Part shown: in pieces, positions 29,073 to 47,483 of the stretch
How positions within the stretch are numbered: position 1 is the first letter of the stretch
Layout: each line of letters begins with the position of its first letter
Assembly (NCBI GenBank): GCA_050309775.1
Contig: JBNRMV010000010.1
Coordinates: 23,193 to 87,192 of the forward strand
Reading direction: 5' to 3'
Length of the DNA stretch: 64,000 nt
Origin: Christensenellales bacterium
GTDB lineage: Bacteria > Bacillota > Clostridia > Christensenellales > DTU072
Position numbers and translations under genes: made by a program
The notes under the pieces: generated by a model
Seen by the model: only the letters and a program-made list of their open reading frames with translations
Told to the model about the DNA's origin: nothing
Database searches by the model: none

Positions 29073-29160
29073 GGAGAGTTGGCTGAGCGGTCGAAAGCGG
29101 CGGTCTTGAAAACCGTTGAAGTGAAAGCTTCCTGGGGTTCGAATCCCTAACTCTCCGCCA
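29073..29160 (+). tRNA. tRNA-Ser (anticodon UGA), CCA encoded
   Basis: Manual cloverleaf: acceptor GGAGAGT/ACTCTCC, anticodon loop CTTGAAA, long variable arm, T-arm with TTCGAAT, 3' GCCA. Confidence 0.95.
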
Positions 29161-31452: not shown

Positions 31453-31541
31453 TGGCGGAGAAGGTGGGATTCGAACCCACGTGACGTTTCCGTCGAACGC
31501 ATTTCGAGTGCGCCTCGTTATGACCACTTCGGTACTTCTCC
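31453..31541 (-). tRNA. tRNA-Ser (anticodon CGA), CCA encoded
   Basis: The reverse complement folds as a class II tRNA: acceptor GGAGAAG/CTTCTCC, anticodon loop CTCGAAA, long variable arm, T-arm GTGGG-TTCGAAT-CCCAC. Confidence 0.95.
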
Positions 31542-39472: not shown

Positions 39473-40654
39473 ATGATACCGAAATATTATGAATTTTTGA
39501 ACTCCGTAAAAATACTCTCCGGCGCAAAGGCGCTTGAAAATATACCGTATGAAATGAAAATGTTTGGCGTCAAAAGACCCATTATATTATCAGACGCCAT
39601 ATTACAAAAAATCGGCGCCATTGACAAGGTTATCACCGCCATAAACGGAGAATTGGATACAAGCGTCATATTTACCGACATTCCGGCGGATTCTTCAGAC
39701 AAGGTTGTCAATGAAATAAGGAAAATATATATTGAGAAAGAGTGCGACGGCATAATAGCCATTGGCGGCGGCTCCGTAATTGACACCGCAAAAGGTGTGC
39801 GTATGCTCATAAGTCAGGAAATTGAGGATATTATGCTGCTTATGGGCAGCGAGGTTATCAACAAAGGCAAAAAAGTGCCGTTCATTGTTGTGCCTACGAC
39901 AAGCGGCACAGGCAGCGAAGCCACGCTGGTGGCGGTTATCTCCAACCCCGACAAGGGCATAAAAATGGAGTTTATTTCATATGAGTTGCTGCCGGATGCG
40001 GCTGTGCTTGACACCCGCATGGTAGAAACCATGCCGCCAAAGATTACGGCATCGACGGGCATGGATGCGCTTTGCCACAGCATAGAAGCGTTCACCGGCT
40101 TGCAACGCAATCCGCTCAGCGACGCATACGCTCTTTCAGCCATTAGGCTTATTGGCGAATATATCGAAACGGCTGTAAGCGCCCCCGCCGACAAGAAAGC
40201 CAGATTGGCTATGGCGAACGCATCGCTTATGGCAGGCATAGCTTTTTCAAATTCCATGGTTGGTTTGGCACACGCCATAGGTCATGCCGCAGGCGGCGTC
40301 AGCCATATACCACATGGCGACGCAATGGCGATACTTTTGCCGCATGTCATGGAATTCAATATGGCTACCTGTGAAGACAGGTATGCCGAAATATTGTTGC
40401 ACCTTGCCGGAGCCGATGTATATGCAGGGGCGCCGAAAGAGGAAAGGGGCAAACTCTGTGTAGAAAAAATCAGACAAATGCTTGAAAAACTCAACAAGCT
40501 ATGCGGTCTGCCCATACGCTTGAAAGATACCCGAGTTACCGAGATTGACATTGTTCCCATTGCAGAAAAGGCCATAAATGACGGCGCCATCGTCGTCAAT
40601 CCCGTAGGCGCAACCAAAGAAGATGTCATAGCCATTTTGAAAAAGGCATTTTAG
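39473..40654 (+). CDS. iron-containing (group III) alcohol dehydrogenase
   Basis: GGGSVIDTAKG and a His-rich metal site AHAIGHAAGGVSHIPHG. Confidence 0.9.
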   Translation: MIPKYYEFLNSVKILSGAKALENIPYEMKMFGVKRPIILSDAILQKIGAIDKVITAINGELDTSVIFTDIPADSSDKVVNEIRKIYIEKECDGIIAIGGGSVIDTAKGVRMLISQEIEDIMLLMGSEVINKGKKVPFIVVPTTSGTGSEATLVAVISNPDKGIKMEFISYELLPDAAVLDTRMVETMPPKITASTGMDALCHSIEAFTGLQRNPLSDAYALSAIRLIGEYIETAVSAPADKKARLAMANASLMAGIAFSNSMVGLAHAIGHAAGGVSHIPHGDAMAILLPHVMEFNMATCEDRYAEILLHLAGADVYAGAPKEERGKLCVEKIRQMLEKLNKLCGLPIRLKDTRVTEIDIVPIAEKAINDGAIVVNPVGATKEDVIAILKKAF

Positions 40655-40665
40655 AGCTATATCTC

Positions 40666-41337
40666 TTAATGCGGTGAATCCGTCTTGCCGTCGTTTATGT
40701 TTATGATGCGCGAACAGCGTTCGGCGATACTAAGTTCGTGAGTAACCAATACGATAGTTTTTCCTTTGGCATTTATACGAAGCAACATATCCATGATTTC
40801 CTTTGAAGTAGAGGTGTCAAGAGCGCCGGTCGGCTCGTCGGCAAATATGTATTTTGCGTCTGCGGCGAGTGCGCGAGCAATGGCTACGCGTTGTTTTTCT
40901 CCGCCTGAGAGTTGACTAACTTTTTTCTTGAGGAAATGTCCCAATCCTACGCCATAAATCAATTCGGATGCCCTTTTGATTCTTTCAGAACCTTTCATTT
41001 TTATAAAATTCAAAGGCAGCATGACATTTTCGAGTGCCGAACACTCATTTATTAAACAGAAATCTTGCATTACTACGCCAATATTTTGAGAGCGGTATTT
41101 GGCAAGCTCAACATCCTTCAGCCGTGTTATATCTATGCCGTCGACTATTACTTCACCTGAGGACGCCGATTCAATGCCGCATAAAATGTTTAATAGCGTG
41201 GATTTTCCCGAGCCTGATTTACCGGTAATGGCAATACATTCTCCGTCTTGTATTTCGAGACTGAGACCGCCAAGAGCCTTGCATGCGTTGGGCTTGTCTT
41301 CATTAAATATTTTCACCAAATTTTTTATACTTATCAT
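40666..41337 (-). CDS. ABC transporter ATP-binding protein (MacB/LolD-like), last gene of the AT-rich operon
   Basis: Walker A GKSGSGKST, signature LSGGEKQR, Walker B IFADEPT. Its start overlaps the upstream permease-like gene by 35 nt. Confidence 0.9.
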   Translation of the reverse strand: MISIKNLVKIFNEDKPNACKALGGLSLEIQDGECIAITGKSGSGKSTLLNILCGIESASSGEVIVDGIDITRLKDVELAKYRSQNIGVVMQDFCLINECSALENVMLPLNFIKMKGSERIKRASELIYGVGLGHFLKKKVSQLSGGEKQRVAIARALAADAKYIFADEPTGALDTSTSKEIMDMLLRINAKGKTIVLVTHELSIAERCSRIININDGKTDSPH

Positions 41338-42418
41338 GTTTTTTTCCTCTGCGTTTTTTGAATATTAGGTATGTCCTTACCGTTATTGCAATAGCCGTCA
41401 AAGACCCGCCGGCAATCAGGCTGTAGGGAACAAATAGGAGGTTATTGCCTGTAAAGCGCAAGACAAAGAATGCGCATATATAATAAAATGCCCAGCTTGC
41501 GAAGGGCAATGCCAAATCAAGTATTACAATAAAGGTATTTTCGCGCCTTCTCGAAAAAAAGGCAAAGGCAAGGACGGTGTATATGATGCCAATCAATATG
41601 AAAATTGAGATTGCCTTTATGGTTTCAGAATCTTGAAAATTTTGTTTCAAATCGATGTTGCCGCTAAGATAATCTTTGGTTTTCGGCACAGCAAAAACAT
41701 TGCCAAGTCCTTGCAGCCGAGTTGTCACCTCGGTAATATCCGCCTTTTCTGTAAAAGTTAAATATAATGCCTCGTAGCGTTCGGGCAACAGTTCGATGTC
41801 GACATAATTGCTGATGTCGGGAATAATAAGGGAAACATGTGTTATATTTCCTACATTTGGAGTAGGGTAGGGAAACGAATAATACCTATCTACAATGCCG
41901 ACAACTTCAAAACGCACCATAATACTTTTACCCGTAGTAATATCTTGAAATCCTGCGTTGAATATGGTTCCTATATCGTATTTTTCATTTGTATCTGATG
42001 AGGTAATTATGCTGCCTAACAAAACTTCTATTGTTTCGTTCTCCTGTTGTGGCACCGGCATTCGCCCTTTTTCGAGTACTAAATAATCTTCATTGAAAAG
42101 AAAAGGGTCGACAACTTTAATGTCCGGAATGTTGCCTAAAGTTATAGAATTATTCAAAGAGGATATACCTTCAAGTTCGGCGCCGATTATTTCGTTCAGC
42201 ATCGTATAAAGATTGGGAAGCATGTCTTCATCAACAAAGGGAGTGAAAAGCACGCTGTTTTCTTCAAACTTTGAGGAGTGAACATCCATTATATGTTGCG
42301 ATAATTCGGCGGACGTTGATGCTTCATGCAAATTGTTCGCAATCAATCCCACCGAATACAAGGAAAGCGGTAAAAACAATGCGAAGGCGATTATTATCAG
42401 CGTATTATATTTTTTCAT
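41303..42418 (-). CDS. FtsX-like (1 TM + ectodomain + 3 TM) membrane protein, paralogue 4
   Basis: Topology read from hydrophobic segments. The sequence is divergent. Overlaps its neighbours at both ends. Confidence 0.7.
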   Translation of the reverse strand: MKKYNTLIIIAFALFLPLSLYSVGLIANNLHEASTSAELSQHIMDVHSSKFEENSVLFTPFVDEDMLPNLYTMLNEIIGAELEGISSLNNSITLGNIPDIKVVDPFLFNEDYLVLEKGRMPVPQQENETIEVLLGSIITSSDTNEKYDIGTIFNAGFQDITTGKSIMVRFEVVGIVDRYYSFPYPTPNVGNITHVSLIIPDISNYVDIELLPERYEALYLTFTEKADITEVTTRLQGLGNVFAVPKTKDYLSGNIDLKQNFQDSETIKAISIFILIGIIYTVLAFAFFSRRRENTFIVILDLALPFASWAFYYICAFFVLRFTGNNLLFVPYSLIAGGSLTAIAITVRTYLIFKKRRGKKHDKYKKFGENI

Positions 42419-43493
42419 AGTGCATATCCTTCTCTGCTTTCTTATTTTTTACGCGAACAATTGAAGTTACTGCGATTTTTAAGAAAAGCGGCAATTGTGA
42501 AATAGCAAATACTAATAATGCATAGCCAAACCTCAAGCTGCGCCACGAGCCGGTCAGATTAACAAAAACAGTAATAAGTATTGTTGAAAGAGCAACGGCA
42601 ATTATGAGAAGTAGGGAGAGGGCTTGGCTTGACAAATAATGTTTGTTTATGCCTTGCAAAAGCTTGTTTATATAGAAATGAATGAGAATAAGCGAAATTG
42701 CGCAAACAATAATGCTGATTATTACCGTTGAAAGGTAATACCTGTTCATATAATATCCGCCTTTCCCATCGAGCTGCGCTATTCCGCTTTGGTCTTGGAT
42801 AAGCTGTATATACTCTTGATTTTCATATACGCTCATATAATCATTGAGTAAAACGACACTGTTTCTTCTTTGTGTAAACAAATCGTCATAAACTCCGGTA
42901 TCGGGCAGAAGAATAAGGTTTTGGGAATATTCTAAAAAATCTTTTGAGCTGTATCTCTTATATTCGGGAAGGGCGTAAAGATTGTCGGCTTCCCCCGAAA
43001 CCCTAGCGGCTATTTCCTTTGAGGTTTGCCCGTCCTCAGAAAAAAGCGTAATAGAAAGAGGGGTGTTTAATTTTATATTTGCCAAACGGTCACCCGTCAA
43101 GATGACTGTTGCCATGTTACTGTCGCTGAAACTCAATGTTTCACCTTTCTTCAAACGAAAAAAATCAGCTTCTTCCAACATTGTGCGGTTTACGAGCATC
43201 ACGGGAACCATGGATACCTTGTTGCCGAAGTTAACTTCAGCATACAGCACATTGCATTCGTAGATGTATCCTTTATAAGAACTTATATTGTTTTTCAGCG
43301 TGTCGTCCAAATCAATCAAAGCGCTTTCTTTTTCCACCGATAAATGTACGCGTCCGCGAGGGGCGCTCATCGAATCGGTTATGCGATTTATCCTGATATT
43401 AGAGAAGTCGTAGCAAAGTGATATCAAAATGCCTACAGAACATAGAAAAAGCAAAATTATTAGAGCAATAACTTTATGTTTATGTGAAAGCAT
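42405..43493 (-). CDS. FtsX-like membrane protein, paralogue 3
   Basis: Same 1+3 TM topology with a ~200-aa ectodomain. 14-nt overlaps with neighbours. Confidence 0.7.
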   Translation of the reverse strand: MLSHKHKVIALIILLFLCSVGILISLCYDFSNIRINRITDSMSAPRGRVHLSVEKESALIDLDDTLKNNISSYKGYIYECNVLYAEVNFGNKVSMVPVMLVNRTMLEEADFFRLKKGETLSFSDSNMATVILTGDRLANIKLNTPLSITLFSEDGQTSKEIAARVSGEADNLYALPEYKRYSSKDFLEYSQNLILLPDTGVYDDLFTQRRNSVVLLNDYMSVYENQEYIQLIQDQSGIAQLDGKGGYYMNRYYLSTVIISIIVCAISLILIHFYINKLLQGINKHYLSSQALSLLLIIAVALSTILITVFVNLTGSWRSLRFGYALLVFAISQLPLFLKIAVTSIVRVKNKKAEKDMHYEKI

Positions 43494-44499
43494 TTTTTTC
43501 CCTCCTTTTTTTTATAGTTCGTAGAATAAAAGAAATTGAAACTACGCCAGTTAATAAAACATAAAAAAGACCTACCGCAATATAATCCGAAAAAGAAAGT
43601 CTTGGAAACACAAATATCAGATTCTTCAACTTTTCCAGAAGAAATATATCAAAAAATAAATAAAGGCAAACAGACAAAAGGTATTGAATAAGCGTGAGCG
43701 CAAAAATTTCTGCAGTTAGTATGGCGGTTAGATTGCGGCGAGATTGTCCTAAAAGCCGATAAATTTCAAAACTTGACATTCGTTGCCTTACGATATAACT
43801 ATAACCCAAAAGGAAAGATATAAGCACGCTTACCGCAGGAAGCCAAAGAGTGATAGCTTCCGACCTAAAAAGAATGTTTCGCCATGTCAATTCAGGCATG
43901 GTCTTTACATTTACACTGAATATCTCCGATAAAGTCGAGGCATACCTTATTCTTGCCCTTTTGCTTCTTATATCGATTTTTATTATATTAGCGCCATATA
44001 TTTGCTGTGTCTTCGGCAATGAGGTATAATTGATTTCCAAAATTTCAGCATCGGACTTTCCCACAACTAAGTATTCTTTGCCAAACAATTCAATGCTTTC
44101 TCCTATTTTAATTTCGGCATTTTGAGGAGCAACAACTTGGTTTTCAGATTTTGACCAATCGATTGGCTCTCCTAATAAAGGATATTTGTAGACAACACCT
44201 GTTAAGGATGCGGATATTTTGTAATCGTTATCAAGGTAAATGATGATATTGTCACTCTCGTAGCTGTCCGTGAAAAAAGCGTTCTTCTTCTCGAATTCTT
44301 CCAGCGTAAGCGCATTAGAGAACTTTAGGTCAAAAACTCCGATGTCAGTAGAATTCAAACTTCCCAAAAGAAAAGAATACATGCCCAGCAGGGTGACGCA
44401 CCCCACCGCTTGCGATAATAGAATTGTCAAGAAAACGACTTTATAGGCGGCTATTGTTTTGAAAGATAATTTTAAGAGATTGCTAATTTTATTTATCAT
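43480..44499 (-). CDS. FtsX-like membrane protein, paralogue 2
   Basis: 1+3 TM topology. YRLLGQSRRNL segment after TM2, as in FtsX/MacB permeases. Confidence 0.75.
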   Translation of the reverse strand: MINKISNLLKLSFKTIAAYKVVFLTILLSQAVGCVTLLGMYSFLLGSLNSTDIGVFDLKFSNALTLEEFEKKNAFFTDSYESDNIIIYLDNDYKISASLTGVVYKYPLLGEPIDWSKSENQVVAPQNAEIKIGESIELFGKEYLVVGKSDAEILEINYTSLPKTQQIYGANIIKIDIRSKRARIRYASTLSEIFSVNVKTMPELTWRNILFRSEAITLWLPAVSVLISFLLGYSYIVRQRMSSFEIYRLLGQSRRNLTAILTAEIFALTLIQYLLSVCLYLFFDIFLLEKLKNLIFVFPRLSFSDYIAVGLFYVLLTGVVSISFILRTIKKRREKNAFT

Positions 44500-44506
44500 T
44501 ATTTTG

Positions 44507-45703
44507 CTATCCTCGCCTTAAAATCAAAGATATATTGCGTTGTTTCAATGCCGCCTTCGAACTAAAGAACGCTACCGTTAAAAAAAGGCTACATACAAAC
44601 ACAATCATAACTAAGGCTACCCAAGTATCCAATGCTGCGCGAATAAAGGCGATGGAAGGAACTATGTAATTCAAAAGCAGTATCAATAAAACAATAGAAA
44701 CAATGCAAATGGCTCCGGCCGATAACATTATTATAATGTTTGCGTCTTTGCGCTTTGCGCCGCATAGATACAGGATAGCCACATCTTTTATTGAGATAAA
44801 GGTGAACAGGGCAACCGCCATAGCGAAATTTGAAAGAGTGGTAAGCATTAAGAAACCAAGGATGGGAAAGAAGGTATTCAATATTCCCTTCATCTCGACA
44901 ATTGATTGTGCTTTTAATTCAGATAAATCATAATATGTTCCATAGGATTTTAGATCGGTTACGATTTCCTTCATTCGAATGTCAGTCACTTCGCTCTTAA
45001 ATACAAAAAGATTGGTATGATGCAGATTTAGTTTTATACCCTGTTCCCCCAAAGCGTCGAGGTTGCATAATATTATAGAATCAGAAACGGTTTTGCCCCA
45101 GTTGAAAACCCAAGACAACTCTGTTACGCTGCCCTTCATTCGGAAATAAGGAAAGGATTGCCTTAATATTCCGGTTATTAGGAAGGTCACACGCTTGACG
45201 CTCGCCCCGAAGTATATATCCGTTTCAAAGCGTTCTCCCACCTTTCCAAAAGAGGTAACGGCATTTATTGCTCCGTCTTGATTGGGAACAGAGGTAAAAA
45301 CTTTTCCTTTTAATAAAGGTAAGTCAAAAAGTCTCATCATATCGCCGCTAACACCTTCAACCAGTGTTGTTTTTCCGTCGGAGGTTTTTGTTGCCATACT
45401 TGAGGCTACGCGATAATTGCGCAGTTCTTCAGAATATTTTGTCTCCAGGTCACGTACGGAGATCAGCTCATCAAATTCGCCACCGGAGAAGTCTTCCCTT
45501 AAAAAAGCTTGGCTCTCTACCATATAGAATCCACCTCTCGAAGACAGCGCCTTAGATGAGATTGCGAACTCTGCATTCGCGCTTAAAACATACGTGAGCA
45601 AGGCATACAGAATAACCACGCAAACCGAGATTTGCAATATTAACAGCAAAAAAAGTATCCGATTCTTCCGATACAATCTATAAGCAGATTTTAAGAAAAC
45701 CAC
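44507..45703 (-). CDS. FtsX-like membrane protein, paralogue 1 (GTG start)
   Basis: 1+3 TM topology. LYLCGAKRKD segment after TM2. AAGGGG RBS before GTG 45703. Confidence 0.8.
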   Translation of the reverse strand: MVFLKSAYRLYRKNRILFLLLILQISVCVVILYALLTYVLSANAEFAISSKALSSRGGFYMVESQAFLREDFSGGEFDELISVRDLETKYSEELRNYRVASSMATKTSDGKTTLVEGVSGDMMRLFDLPLLKGKVFTSVPNQDGAINAVTSFGKVGERFETDIYFGASVKRVTFLITGILRQSFPYFRMKGSVTELSWVFNWGKTVSDSIILCNLDALGEQGIKLNLHHTNLFVFKSEVTDIRMKEIVTDLKSYGTYYDLSELKAQSIVEMKGILNTFFPILGFLMLTTLSNFAMAVALFTFISIKDVAILYLCGAKRKDANIIIMLSAGAICIVSIVLLILLLNYIVPSIAFIRAALDTWVALVMIVFVCSLFLTVAFFSSKAALKQRNISLILRRG

Positions 45704-45721
45704 TCGAAACCCCTTATTGTA

Positions 45722-45931
45722 TTATTGAACTGTAATTGTCGTCCAATATGTGTTAACCAAAGTACCGCTGGAATTTCGATCTTCTAACTTGCTATCGTGA
45801 ATAACCTTTTTTGCTTTTGAGGTAACAAAAGCTTCTTCTACTGCACGATTGTTAGACGAGATTATTTGCGTATCGGTTTGAGAAACGACAGAGCCATTTG
45901 TTTTTGTTACAGTAGTGGTTGCGGTCATCAT
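45722..45931 (-). CDS. 69-aa Thr/Ser/Asn-rich protein, no signal peptide
   Basis: The ATG overlaps the upstream stop (ATGA). No recognisable motif. Confidence 0.5.
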   Translation of the reverse strand: MMTATTTVTKTNGSVVSQTDTQIISSNNRAVEEAFVTSKAKKVIHDSKLEDRNSSGTLVNTYWTTITVQ

Positions 45932-46202
45932 ATCTCCGATAAAGCCGCTTGCGCATATGTTGCTGGGTCAACTTTAATAGTAAGTTTTGTAGTATAATTA
46001 TTAAGTCCTAACCCGTGACATCCATCATAATGCTCAGTTAAAGTTAAATTACCGTCCATGAAATAATGATGATCATTGTATACAGTATCCCAAGCGTGTG
46101 ACCCTGTATGATGCCAAGTATAAGCAAACGCTGTTGCGCCCATGCTGATTGTTAATGCAAAAAATATGCCGATAACAGCAGACAAAAAACAAATTTTTTC
46201 AT
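45928..46202 (-). CDS. small secreted His-rich protein; the signal peptide is interrupted by a frame change at a T6 run (46184-46189)
   Basis: GGAGGA RBS (46211-46216) sits 8 nt before ATG 46202, which gives MKKFVF in one frame. The rest of the signal peptide and the mature part (LSAVIGIFFALTISMGATAFA / YTWHHTGSHAW...) lie in the -1 frame. The ORF-track ATG 46233 sits inside the -10 box. Confidence 0.5.
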
Positions 46203-46231
46203 AATTTAAATCCTCCCATAAAGATGCTATC

Positions 46232-46260
46232 ATTATAAATTAAACTGCTTCATTTGTCAA
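46232..46260 (-). promoter_or_regulatory. perfect consensus sigma-A promoter of the AT-rich operon
   Basis: Minus strand: TTGACA (46260-46255), 17-nt spacer, TATAAT (46237-46232). Confidence 0.7.
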
Positions 46261-46354
46261 TACCATGGGTATGATATCTTTCTATTCTAATAATGCGTAT
46301 TTCGGCATTATTCGTTGTTTTATTTATGGAAGAACAGTTCATAATTAAAAATGT

Positions 46355-46897
46355 ATGAAAAAGATATGCAAAAACTGCCAGACGCTGTCAAAGAACAACG
46401 ATATTATGCGCGAGCAGGCAAAGAGGATAGCCGAGCTTAAGAGGGAGGTAAACGACCTCTCTGTTGCTTTGGAGCAGTATCGCAGTCGCGAGACGCAGAC
46501 AATGCAGGTCATTACTTTGGCAAAGCAAAAGGCTGATGAGCTGGCGCAAGAGGCAAAGATAAAGTACGCTCTTGAATGCCAGCGGCTGAGGGTGTACCGT
46601 GACAAATGGATGCGATATATTAAAGACCGGAATGCCGCGGGCAAATTGGCTCAAGATATAGAAAAAACCAATGAGGTGTTGAAGGAGTGCCAGGCTTTGC
46701 TGGAAGATATGCTCTATACTGATTTGGGAATAAACTGCAATGTGGCGGACAGTTATATTTGTGAACGGGAGAGAATAGACGACGAGCCGCTGCTGGATTA
46801 TAAGACAATTATTGCAGAAGCTGAAAGAAAAGCCGCAGCAGAGGATACCATTACTGATGAAGAACTGGAGAAAATGCTGGAAAAACTCAGGAATTGA
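46355..46897 (+). CDS. coiled-coil protein (DivIVA-like?), N-terminal CxxC
   Basis: 180-aa ORF with a heptad-like charged helical sequence. No clear SD. The family assignment is tentative. Confidence 0.55.
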   Translation: MKKICKNCQTLSKNNDIMREQAKRIAELKREVNDLSVALEQYRSRETQTMQVITLAKQKADELAQEAKIKYALECQRLRVYRDKWMRYIKDRNAAGKLAQDIEKTNEVLKECQALLEDMLYTDLGINCNVADSYICERERIDDEPLLDYKTIIAEAERKAAAEDTITDEELEKMLEKLRN

Positions 46898-46957
46898 ATT
46901 TTTTTATTAAGGTAAATCGATTTTATAGTAATTTCAAAAAAAAGTGCAAAAAAATGT

Positions 46958-46986
46958 TTGACACGGCTTTTTTGCTATGATATAGT
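46958..46986 (+). promoter_or_regulatory. putative promoter of the S10 ribosomal operon
   Basis: TTGACA (46958-46963), 17-nt spacer, TATAGT (46981-46986). A ~185-nt structured leader follows. Confidence 0.6.
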
Positions 46987-47174
46987 GATTAGGCTGCGTA
47001 AAATTGGGATGATGCGGGAGGTTACCTGAGTATCGGGATAGTTTCCGCAGACAAGCGTCGGAGCAAGACTCAGGCGGCCGAACTCAAAAAAAGGTGAAAA
47101 CCTTTTTTAAAAAAAGCAGTACGACACACACGGACAAGTGTAAGAGTTAGGCAAAAACTAGGAGGTACAAAAAC

Positions 47175-47483
47175 ATGGCAGGTCAAAAGATTAGAATCAA
47201 GCTCAAAGCGTATGACCACAATCTCATCGACAATTCTTGTCAAAAAATTGTTGAGGCAGTCAAGCGTACAGGCGCCGGCATATCCGGTCCGATACCGTTG
47301 CCCACAGACAAGGAAATAGTGACTATCCTGCGTTCACCGCACAAACACAAGGATAGCCGCGAGCAGTTCGAGCTGCGCACGCACAAGCGTTTAATCGATA
47401 TCTACAATTCTACTTCAAAAACGGTAGAAGCGTTGATGAAGCTGGATTTACCGGCAGGCGTTGACATTCAGATAAAGCTGTAA
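47175..47483 (+). CDS. rpsJ: 30S ribosomal protein S10
   Basis: [15 protein letters not shown], conserved uS10 sequence, first gene of the cluster. Confidence 0.97.

Follow-up and report, generated by a model that had tools for sequence, protein, structure and literature searches.

Each characterised ABC (ATP-binding cassette) system of type VII has a dedicated extracytoplasmic partner (PMC12646458, PMC7668044), and MacB-type systems are known to protect against Sec-exported or self-made peptides (PMC5985334). Loss of a toxin gene with retention of its companions is also on record, since at the pneumococcal scb locus a natural toxin deletion with scbBC kept is present in 25% of strains (PMC11796350). 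In the present work we analysed a stretch of 64,000 nucleotides (nt) from a Christensenellales bacterium (contig JBNRMV010000010.1, positions 23,193 to 87,192, hereafter the window), in which a minus-strand operon at 40666-46260 places a broken gene for a secreted protein ahead of four genes for putative FtsX-superfamily membrane proteins (X1 to X4) and one ABC ATPase gene. A secreted effector combined with a type VII ABC system is a kind of arrangement that is already known; a module of four FtsX-type subunits is unusual. Christensenellaceae are prominent gut commensals. To our knowledge no competition or envelope system has been characterised in this family, and a full-text literature search found none.

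The two small open reading frames (ORFs) at the head of the operon, one His-rich and one Thr-rich, are the halves of a single secreted-protein gene, which has been inactivated by two frameshifts in the window strain, while the five downstream ABC genes are intact. The preliminary description of this DNA, made from the sequence alone, had taken the halves for two separate small products, the first one with a Sec signal peptide and a mature part of about 64 amino acids (aa). The signal peptide stands, but the length and the number of products do not. Related loci (L) and proteins (P) reveal one precursor: the intact orthologue at L073:1951-2433 encodes 160 aa, of which MRKLVLLSAFLCTFFVLTISMGATAFA (27 aa, ending in AFA) is the signal peptide, followed by a 133-aa mature protein that begins with YTWHH. 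The precursor has an MKK or MRK start, a hydrophobic core and the AFA cleavage motif. Additionally, the His-rich and Thr-rich parts form a single polypeptide in P0009 and P0011, where they are joined by ...YGQNGFIGDVMTATT... The site of the break reads CAAGCGG in the window, CAAAACGG in L003 and CAGAATGG in L073. Upstream of the ATG of the second ORF, the -1 frame of the window still encodes SGFIGDMMTATT, in which SGFIGDM matches the NGFIGDV/T of the intact forms, and therefore a 1-nt deletion split the gene here. The other frameshift lies in the signal-peptide codons. The listed start, ATG 46233, overlaps the -10 hexamer and is thus unlikely to lie within the transcript; the true start is ATG 46202-46200, which is out of frame with the ORF in the window strain. 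With the six T of the window, this ATG, which is served by the ribosome-binding site (RBS), encodes MKKFVFCLLLSAYFLH and then a stop, whereas P0010, P0012 and P0003 begin with MKKFVFLSAVIG..., which requires seven T. The six-T state (T6) was found in the window, L002 and L003, and the seven-T state (T7) in L004, L005, P0010 and P0012. A more general lesson is that what look like two tidy, overlapping mini-ORFs after a perfect promoter can be the pieces of one broken gene.

The frameshifts differ among assemblies, and in most of them the secreted-protein gene is broken and the five ABC genes are open. L002, from an independent run, is identical to the window across 8.1 kb, both lesions included, and the lesions are therefore not assembly noise. 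L001, of the same lineage as L073, carries a different, private deletion (CAGAATGG to CAGATGG) that splits the gene as well. L004 and L005 are 99.6% identical to the window and have T7 but also a 4-nt CTAC duplication, to which L005 adds a further 1-nt deletion in the same gene. The frameshifts appear to concentrate in homopolymer runs of the secreted-protein gene, and the non-homopolymer lesions of the window clade comprise the deletion at 45950, the 4-nt duplication and a 1-nt deletion at 45771. When the window was compared with L005, three of the five indels fell inside the 483 nt of the secreted-protein gene out of 8106 aligned nt (binomial P about 0.002), and the 5.1 kb of ABC genes showed a single 2-nt change at the X4 tail. 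Specifically, the overlap of the X4 and ATPase genes (41337-41345) has A7 in the window vs. A5 in L005, altering the tail of X4 (371 vs. 360 aa). In the same comparison, 17 of the 30 substitutions lie within 45500-47000, a region that holds the secreted-protein gene, the promoter region and the divergent gene at 46355-46897; this cluster may be a recombination tract or a local hot spot of diversity. The secreted protein itself is under long-term purifying selection, as comparison with L001 gave ratios of nonsynonymous to synonymous substitution rates (dN/dS) of 0.18 in the N-half and 0.07 in the C-half.

The stretch is one accessory operon with a predicted consensus promoter (Table 1). The seven co-directional minus-strand ORFs, their tight packing, the TTGACA-17-TATAAT promoter and the single ABC ATPase named in the preliminary description are all present. 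Adjacent genes overlap or lie 7-18 nt apart, and the promoter is a perfect 12/12 match to the sigma-70 consensus, the only one within 40000-47300 (46260..46232, minus strand). Its TTGACA box could be aligned across all related loci; the window-type loci and L003 share the spacing of TATAAT, which in L001 and L073 stands at a different position. Concerning the Shine-Dalgarno sequence, GGAGGA is kept in L001, L002 and L003, and GTGAGGA is present in L004 and L005. The AT-richness that had been noticed by eye was borne out by calculation, with a G+C content of 0.388 for 40666-46260 vs. 0.448 in the rest of the window. No 1-kb segment outside the operon is as low in G+C as the operon mean, and G+C at third codon positions (GC3) is 0.36-0.42 in the five long operon genes vs. 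0.51 +/- 0.03 (minimum 0.44) in the 37 other long ORFs of the window. An Rfam scan gave no match inside the operon, and when its flanks were searched for direct or inverted repeats of the mobile-element kind, none turned up. The only Rfam matches in the window are two tRNA genes, at 29073-29157 (plus strand) and 31456-31541 (minus strand), which are unrelated to the operon.

Table 1. Features of the operon in the window and of related modules in other loci
Feature	Position	Strand	Remarks
Disrupted secreted-protein gene	45722..46202	minus	intact form 160 aa; covers the His-rich and Thr-rich ORFs
His-rich ORF as listed	46233-45928	minus	N-half of the disrupted gene
Thr-rich ORF as listed	45931-45722	minus	C-half of the disrupted gene
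X1	44507..45703	minus	398 aa; GTG start; putative FtsX/MacB-type permease subunit
X2	43480..44499	minus	339 aa; putative FtsX-type permease subunit
X3	42405..43493	minus	362 aa; putative degenerate FtsX-superfamily paralogue
X4	41303..42418	minus	371 aa; putative degenerate FtsX-superfamily paralogue
ABC ATPase	40666..41337	minus	223 aa; predicted MacB/LolD/FtsE class
Promoter	46232..46260	minus	-35 TTGACA 46260-46255; 17-nt spacer; -10 TATAAT 46237-46232; predicted from consensus
Shine-Dalgarno GGGAGGA	46211..46217	minus	8 nt upstream of ATG 46202
Frameshift 1	46184..46189	minus	T6 run in signal-peptide codons; from DNA alignment with relatives
Frameshift 2	45948..45951	minus	1-nt deletion; splits the gene into two ORFs
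L074/75 module			after thymidine kinase; without secreted gene
L077 module			after AgrC-type GHKL kinase; without secreted gene
L079/80 module			without secreted gene
L076 module			upstream side cut off by contig end
L078 module			X1 and X2 swapped; secreted-gene homologue directly upstream

Judged by its domain matches, the ATPase is a nucleotide-binding subunit of the MacB/LolD/FtsE class. It matches PF00005 with 122 bits, and its best NCBIfam models are TIGR03608 (L_ocin_972_ABC), LolD, FtsE and the MacB nucleotide-binding domain (NBD), with E-values from 1e-54 to 1e-62; TIGR03608 scores 210.5 bits (cut-off 254.85) and is tied with LolD (210 bits). An anti-phage system was also considered and rejected, as PADLOC yielded generic ATPase similarity only.

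Hydropathy analysis gives X1 to X4 of the window a common layout, namely a first transmembrane (TM) helix, an ectodomain of 160-240 aa (about 230 aa in X1) and three C-terminal TM helices. They had been described as four FtsX-like paralogues, a wording that is defensible but holds unequally for the four. X2 exceeds the Pfam FtsX threshold (PF02687, 28.1 bits with a cut-off of 25.5), and X1 stays below threshold for both FtsX (15.9 bits) and MacB_PCD (22.2 bits with a cut-off of 27). Among the orthologues, FtsX was matched by four of four for X1 (best E-value 3.7e-5) and by four of four for X2, and MacB_PCD by three of the four X1 proteins. These weak but consistent matches suggest that X1 and X2 are of the FtsX/MacB type. 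For X3 and X4 no Pfam match was obtained in any of five orthologues each, and BLAST detected no similarity of X1-X4 with one another. X3 and X4 appear to be degenerate members, linked to the superfamily by profile-profile comparison only, for which alignments of 6-7 orthologues per protein were used: hhalign gave 97.9% for X3-X4 (E-value 5e-13), 95.9% for X1-X4 (E-value 5e-9 across 236 columns) and only 48.7% for X1-X2. The layout varies elsewhere, with several loci having an X3 or X4 of about 300 aa and 1+1 TM helices only. PDB profile searches with X1-X4 came back empty, and the AlphaFold model of X3 was unusable, with a predicted local distance difference test (pLDDT) score of 43. Identity to L001 is 65% for X1, 53% for X2, 47% for X3 and 39% for X4, the fastest-evolving subunit, and 89-93% for the flanking genes. 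The divergence is similar across TM and ectodomain parts, and diversifying selection specific to the ectodomain was not seen.

The mature secreted protein (14 kDa) is rich in His, Tyr and Trp in its N-half and in Thr and Ser in its C-half, and is predicted to be mostly beta-strand. Searches of Pfam and NCBIfam, which had been proposed for the small ORFs at the outset, gave no informative match with either fragment, with the fused forms or with the intact protein, and these domain models likewise detected no hydrolase or other enzymatic domain. A word-indexed search of 5.8 billion proteins yielded three clusters for the secreted protein and two for X1. An exhaustive HMMER profile search of 1.84 billion representative proteins recovered only its own family, and sequence and profile searches of the PDB gave matches at chance level. 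By such comparisons, the secreted protein is classed as an ORFan family.

The operon is also a rare, lineage-restricted accessory element. Universal conservation in the lineage, which had been raised as a possibility, is not what we found, as it is missing from both nearest genome representatives, an uncultured Christensenella sp. (91% identity for ADH) and Clostridiales bacterium DTU072 (76%), in which nothing of the kind separates Fe-ADH from the 180-aa gene ahead of the S10 operon. In the former, a 310-bp spacer (L006:4964-5272, cf. window 40655-46354) holds three collinear relics of X4, which correspond to window 41324-41358, 41556-41584 and 41925-42062, the last being 86% identical over 138 nt; the operon was therefore once present in that lineage and was later deleted. 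Starting from ATPase relatives of 59-72% identity, we found collinear X1-X2-X3-X4-ATPase modules in a few low-GC relatives of Clostridia, where their genomic surroundings differ from those in the window (Table 1). Among these, only L078 has the secreted-protein gene, as a distant homologue recognised by its context, and a profile search of the remaining loci gave no relic of it. The upstream ORF there (131 aa as called) shows 38% identity over 42 residues to the C-half (E-value 9e-5, a single comparison). At L078:1599-1680 an A7 run after the RBS-served ATG puts the gene out of frame, where A6 would restore a canonical signal peptide, MKKVLLMLVLCLIVAIPIAGTVAHA; within the family this makes a second 5' homopolymer lesion of independent origin. 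The kinase of L077 (L077:3-899), at which the contig is cut, is an AgrC/ComD-type GHKL histidine kinase (HATPase_c_5, E-value 3e-15) and stands directly upstream of its module. The stand-alone modules resemble orphan immunity modules. The related modules have 28-35% G+C, and the two of them that have long flanks sit in sequence of 35% G+C, which fits acquisition of the 39% module of the window from a donor of lower G+C.

Apart from the module loci, a metagenome scan with the secreted protein found nothing, and one with the ATPase gave generic relatives of at most 54% identity and no homologues of X1-X4 or of the secreted protein. A prophage origin was considered and is unsupported, as viral contig scans with the secreted protein and X1 found nothing. 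The neighbours of the window operon are Fe-ADH on one side and the 180-aa gene, followed by the S10 operon, on the other. This 180-aa gene (46355-46897, plus strand) lies between the operon and rpsJ and encodes a conserved protein without a Pfam match, which by eye is coiled-coil-like (charged, heptad-like, with CxxC near the N-terminus). It stands outside the operon, because its position is kept in relatives that have no operon. Two source annotations look spurious, namely "Tfp pilus tip-associated adhesin PilY1" for the truncated secreted protein P0003 and "branched-subunit amino acid transport protein AzlD" for the X4 protein P0022.

Regarding function, our tentative preference, held at somewhat less than an even chance, is that the operon encodes a secreted antagonistic protein together with a type VII ABC machine for self-protection, and that the window strain has lost the toxin and kept the immunity. 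The novel toxin with a MacB-type machine proposed in the preliminary description is thus still the best functional guess, with the toxin gene broken in the window. X1 and X2 would pair into a heterodimer of the LolC/LolE kind, driven by a dimer of the ATPase, with X3 and X4 as membrane-anchored ectodomain accessories. Like type VII ABC systems in general, the machine would do its work at the membrane's outer face. The secreted protein would be a bacteriocin-like antagonist from which the ABC module shields the producer, as YknXYZ does for SDP and AS-48EFGH for AS-48, and as is presumed of the B and C genes of Lcn972-like loci. The window strain and several relatives would then be immune non-producers. 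Such a reading fits because the secreted-protein gene has been inactivated repeatedly and independently while the ABC genes were kept, because stand-alone modules occur, and because an AgrC-type kinase adjoins one of them.

Several observations weigh against this proposal. No relative of known function was detected for the secreted protein, and the AlphaFold2 model of its fused form (pLDDT 39) is unusable for fold comparison. Conservation is higher for the mature part of the candidate toxin (81-88%) than for the supposed immunity proteins (39-65%), and the even divergence of the X proteins over TM helices and ectodomain looks like weak constraint and not like a toxin-immunity arms race. Finally, three module loci have no secreted gene, and the ABC machine may therefore serve some independent function. 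If the antagonist reading is true, the secreted proteins would be a new effector family with no relatives among the 1.84 billion representative proteins, and the ABC architecture of four FtsX-type subunits, two of them degenerate, would fall outside the catalogued permutations of the MacB superfamily. The natural series of intact, split, signal-peptide-frameshifted and relic-only alleles would moreover suit studies of producers and cheaters.

The main alternative, which we regard as doubtful, is that the type VII ABC machine has in the secreted protein a non-toxic partner or cargo on its extracytoplasmic side, which the X ectodomains, through ATP-driven movements, would activate, release or place at its position in the envelope. 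Precedents are EnvC and PcsB for FtsEX, LolA for LolCDE and TesA for YbbAP (PMC7668044, PMC12646458), and the use of such a partner throughout the characterised systems of this type speaks for it. The gene is predicted to be co-transcribed with the module and lies directly upstream of it in two deeply diverged loci, and its product is under strong purifying selection. However, a machine that depends on its partner should decay along with it, and here the machine outlives the partner: the gene is broken in most assemblies with the ABC genes intact, and three module loci have no partner gene at all. The failure to detect an enzymatic domain, hydrolase or other, also counts against a partner.

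The frameshifts may be read differently, as a phase-variation switch in which slipped-strand events in the T6/T7 run here and the A6/A7 run in L078 turn the gene on and off within populations. This is compatible with the secreted protein being either a toxin or a partner, and we consider it unlikely. As in contingency genes, a homopolymer tract in the 5' coding region varies in length between otherwise identical alleles, since identical mature sequences are found in the T6 and T7 states (P0006 vs. P0010, P0008 vs. P0012). T6 and T7 each appeared in two data sets that are independent of each other, the divergent L003 lineage has T6 as well, and the out-of-frame A7 run just past the start codon of L078 arose independently. 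On the other hand, with 6-7 nt the tracts are shorter than is usual in classical contingency loci, and homopolymer indels may simply be the first to accumulate in a dead gene. Moreover, the non-homopolymer lesions of the window clade would not be readily reversed by such a switch and would make the state of the T run irrelevant there. The fullest version of the antagonist proposal, a Sec-dependent antagonist family of about 14 kDa with a type VII ABC system of four FtsX subunits, toggled by homopolymer slippage so that producers are mixed with immune non-producers, is as a whole distinctly doubtful.

According to a further alternative, the module serves general detoxification or sensing of exogenous antimicrobial peptides or of envelope stress, in a role like that of BceAB or HrtAB, and the secreted gene is a passenger. 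The occurrence of the module alone in L074/75, L077 and L079/80, the GHKL sensor kinase adjoining the L077 module and the retention of the module where the first gene is dead would all agree with this. It is nevertheless decidedly unlikely, as two loci with only 68% identity between their ATPases, and with a different order of X1 and X2, have homologous secreted genes at the same place, which argues for an old functional link, and as no two-component system stands beside the window operon.

That the operon is a bacteriocin locus of the lactococcin-972 family itself is very improbable. The Sec signal peptide, a by-eye TW.HH...Y.N.HH-like motif and the name of the top NCBIfam model of the ATPase, L_ocin_972_ABC, point in that direction, and the N-terminal likeness had been pointed out, as weak, in the preliminary description. 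This likeness did not survive comparison, as neither PF09683 nor TIGR01653 matched the fragments, the fused P0009 and P0011 or the intact L073 protein at E-values up to 1-10 (10 for the intact protein), and BLASTP of the secreted protein against an approximate Lcn972 sequence gave E = 11. The Lcn972 structure is absent among the PDB profile-search matches, X1-X4 have no match to TIGR01654, the model for the bacteriocin-associated membrane protein with about seven TM helices, and the ATPase remains under the TIGR03608 cut-off and scores equally with LolD. The doubt already voiced about length and permease number was justified, since the mature protein of 133 aa is about twice the family size (60-70 residues) and there are four membrane proteins. 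Lastly, it is scarcely credible that each mini-ORF yields a functional product of its own or that programmed -1 frameshifting joins the two. In favour are the strong purifying selection on the C-half (dN/dS 0.07) between two lineages that both carry a split and the ATGA stop/start overlap that would permit translational coupling. Against this, the overlap is automatic from Met-Thr in the other frame, and the C-half alone has no signal peptide. Programmed frameshifting was rejected on the grounds that neither CAAGCGG nor CAGATGG offers a slippery heptamer and that L001 was split recently by a private 1-nt deletion, which its near-identical relative L073 does not have, being intact.

In layout, the lactococcin-972 loci (lclA-lclB-lclC; scbABC) do offer an analogy, as had been proposed. 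Their first gene encodes a Sec-dependent, unmodified, beta-rich secreted protein, followed by one or more ectodomain-bearing membrane proteins and a MacB/LolD-class ATPase, and their natural variants drop the toxin gene and retain the downstream genes (PMC11796350). Here, in contrast, neither the candidate toxin nor the membrane proteins match the models, the mature protein is twice as long, and four separate proteins with 1+3 (or 1+1) TM helices take the place of one protein with about seven. BceAB modules likewise combine, in Firmicutes, an FtsX-domain permease bearing a large ectodomain with a MacB-class ATPase, and L077 even lies beside a sensor kinase; they differ in having a single BceB of 10 TM helices and a BceRS-type two-component system, neither of which is found in the window. 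Closer in role would be YknWXYZ, which confers SDP resistance in Bacillus, and AS-48EFGH, where a MacB-type permease, an ATPase and extra membrane proteins guard the producer against its own Sec-exported or secreted peptide (PMC5985334). These include an HlyD-type adaptor (YknX, As-48E/F-like) that is absent here, and their toxins are unrelated small peptides with genes elsewhere or in larger clusters. Finally, the operon resembles the type VII ABC systems LolCDE, FtsEX, MacAB and YbbAP in that X1 and X2 match FtsX (and X1 weakly MacB_PCD), in the TM1, ectodomain, TM2-4 topology, in the NBD being a separate protein and in the extracytoplasmic protein, and a heterodimeric permease is plausible, as in LolC/LolE. 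It departs from them in X3 and X4, which have no FtsX sequence signature and in several loci are two TM helices short, and in its four FtsX-superfamily genes per ATPase, which are not among the listed arrangements (homodimer, heterodimer, fused; PMC5985334).

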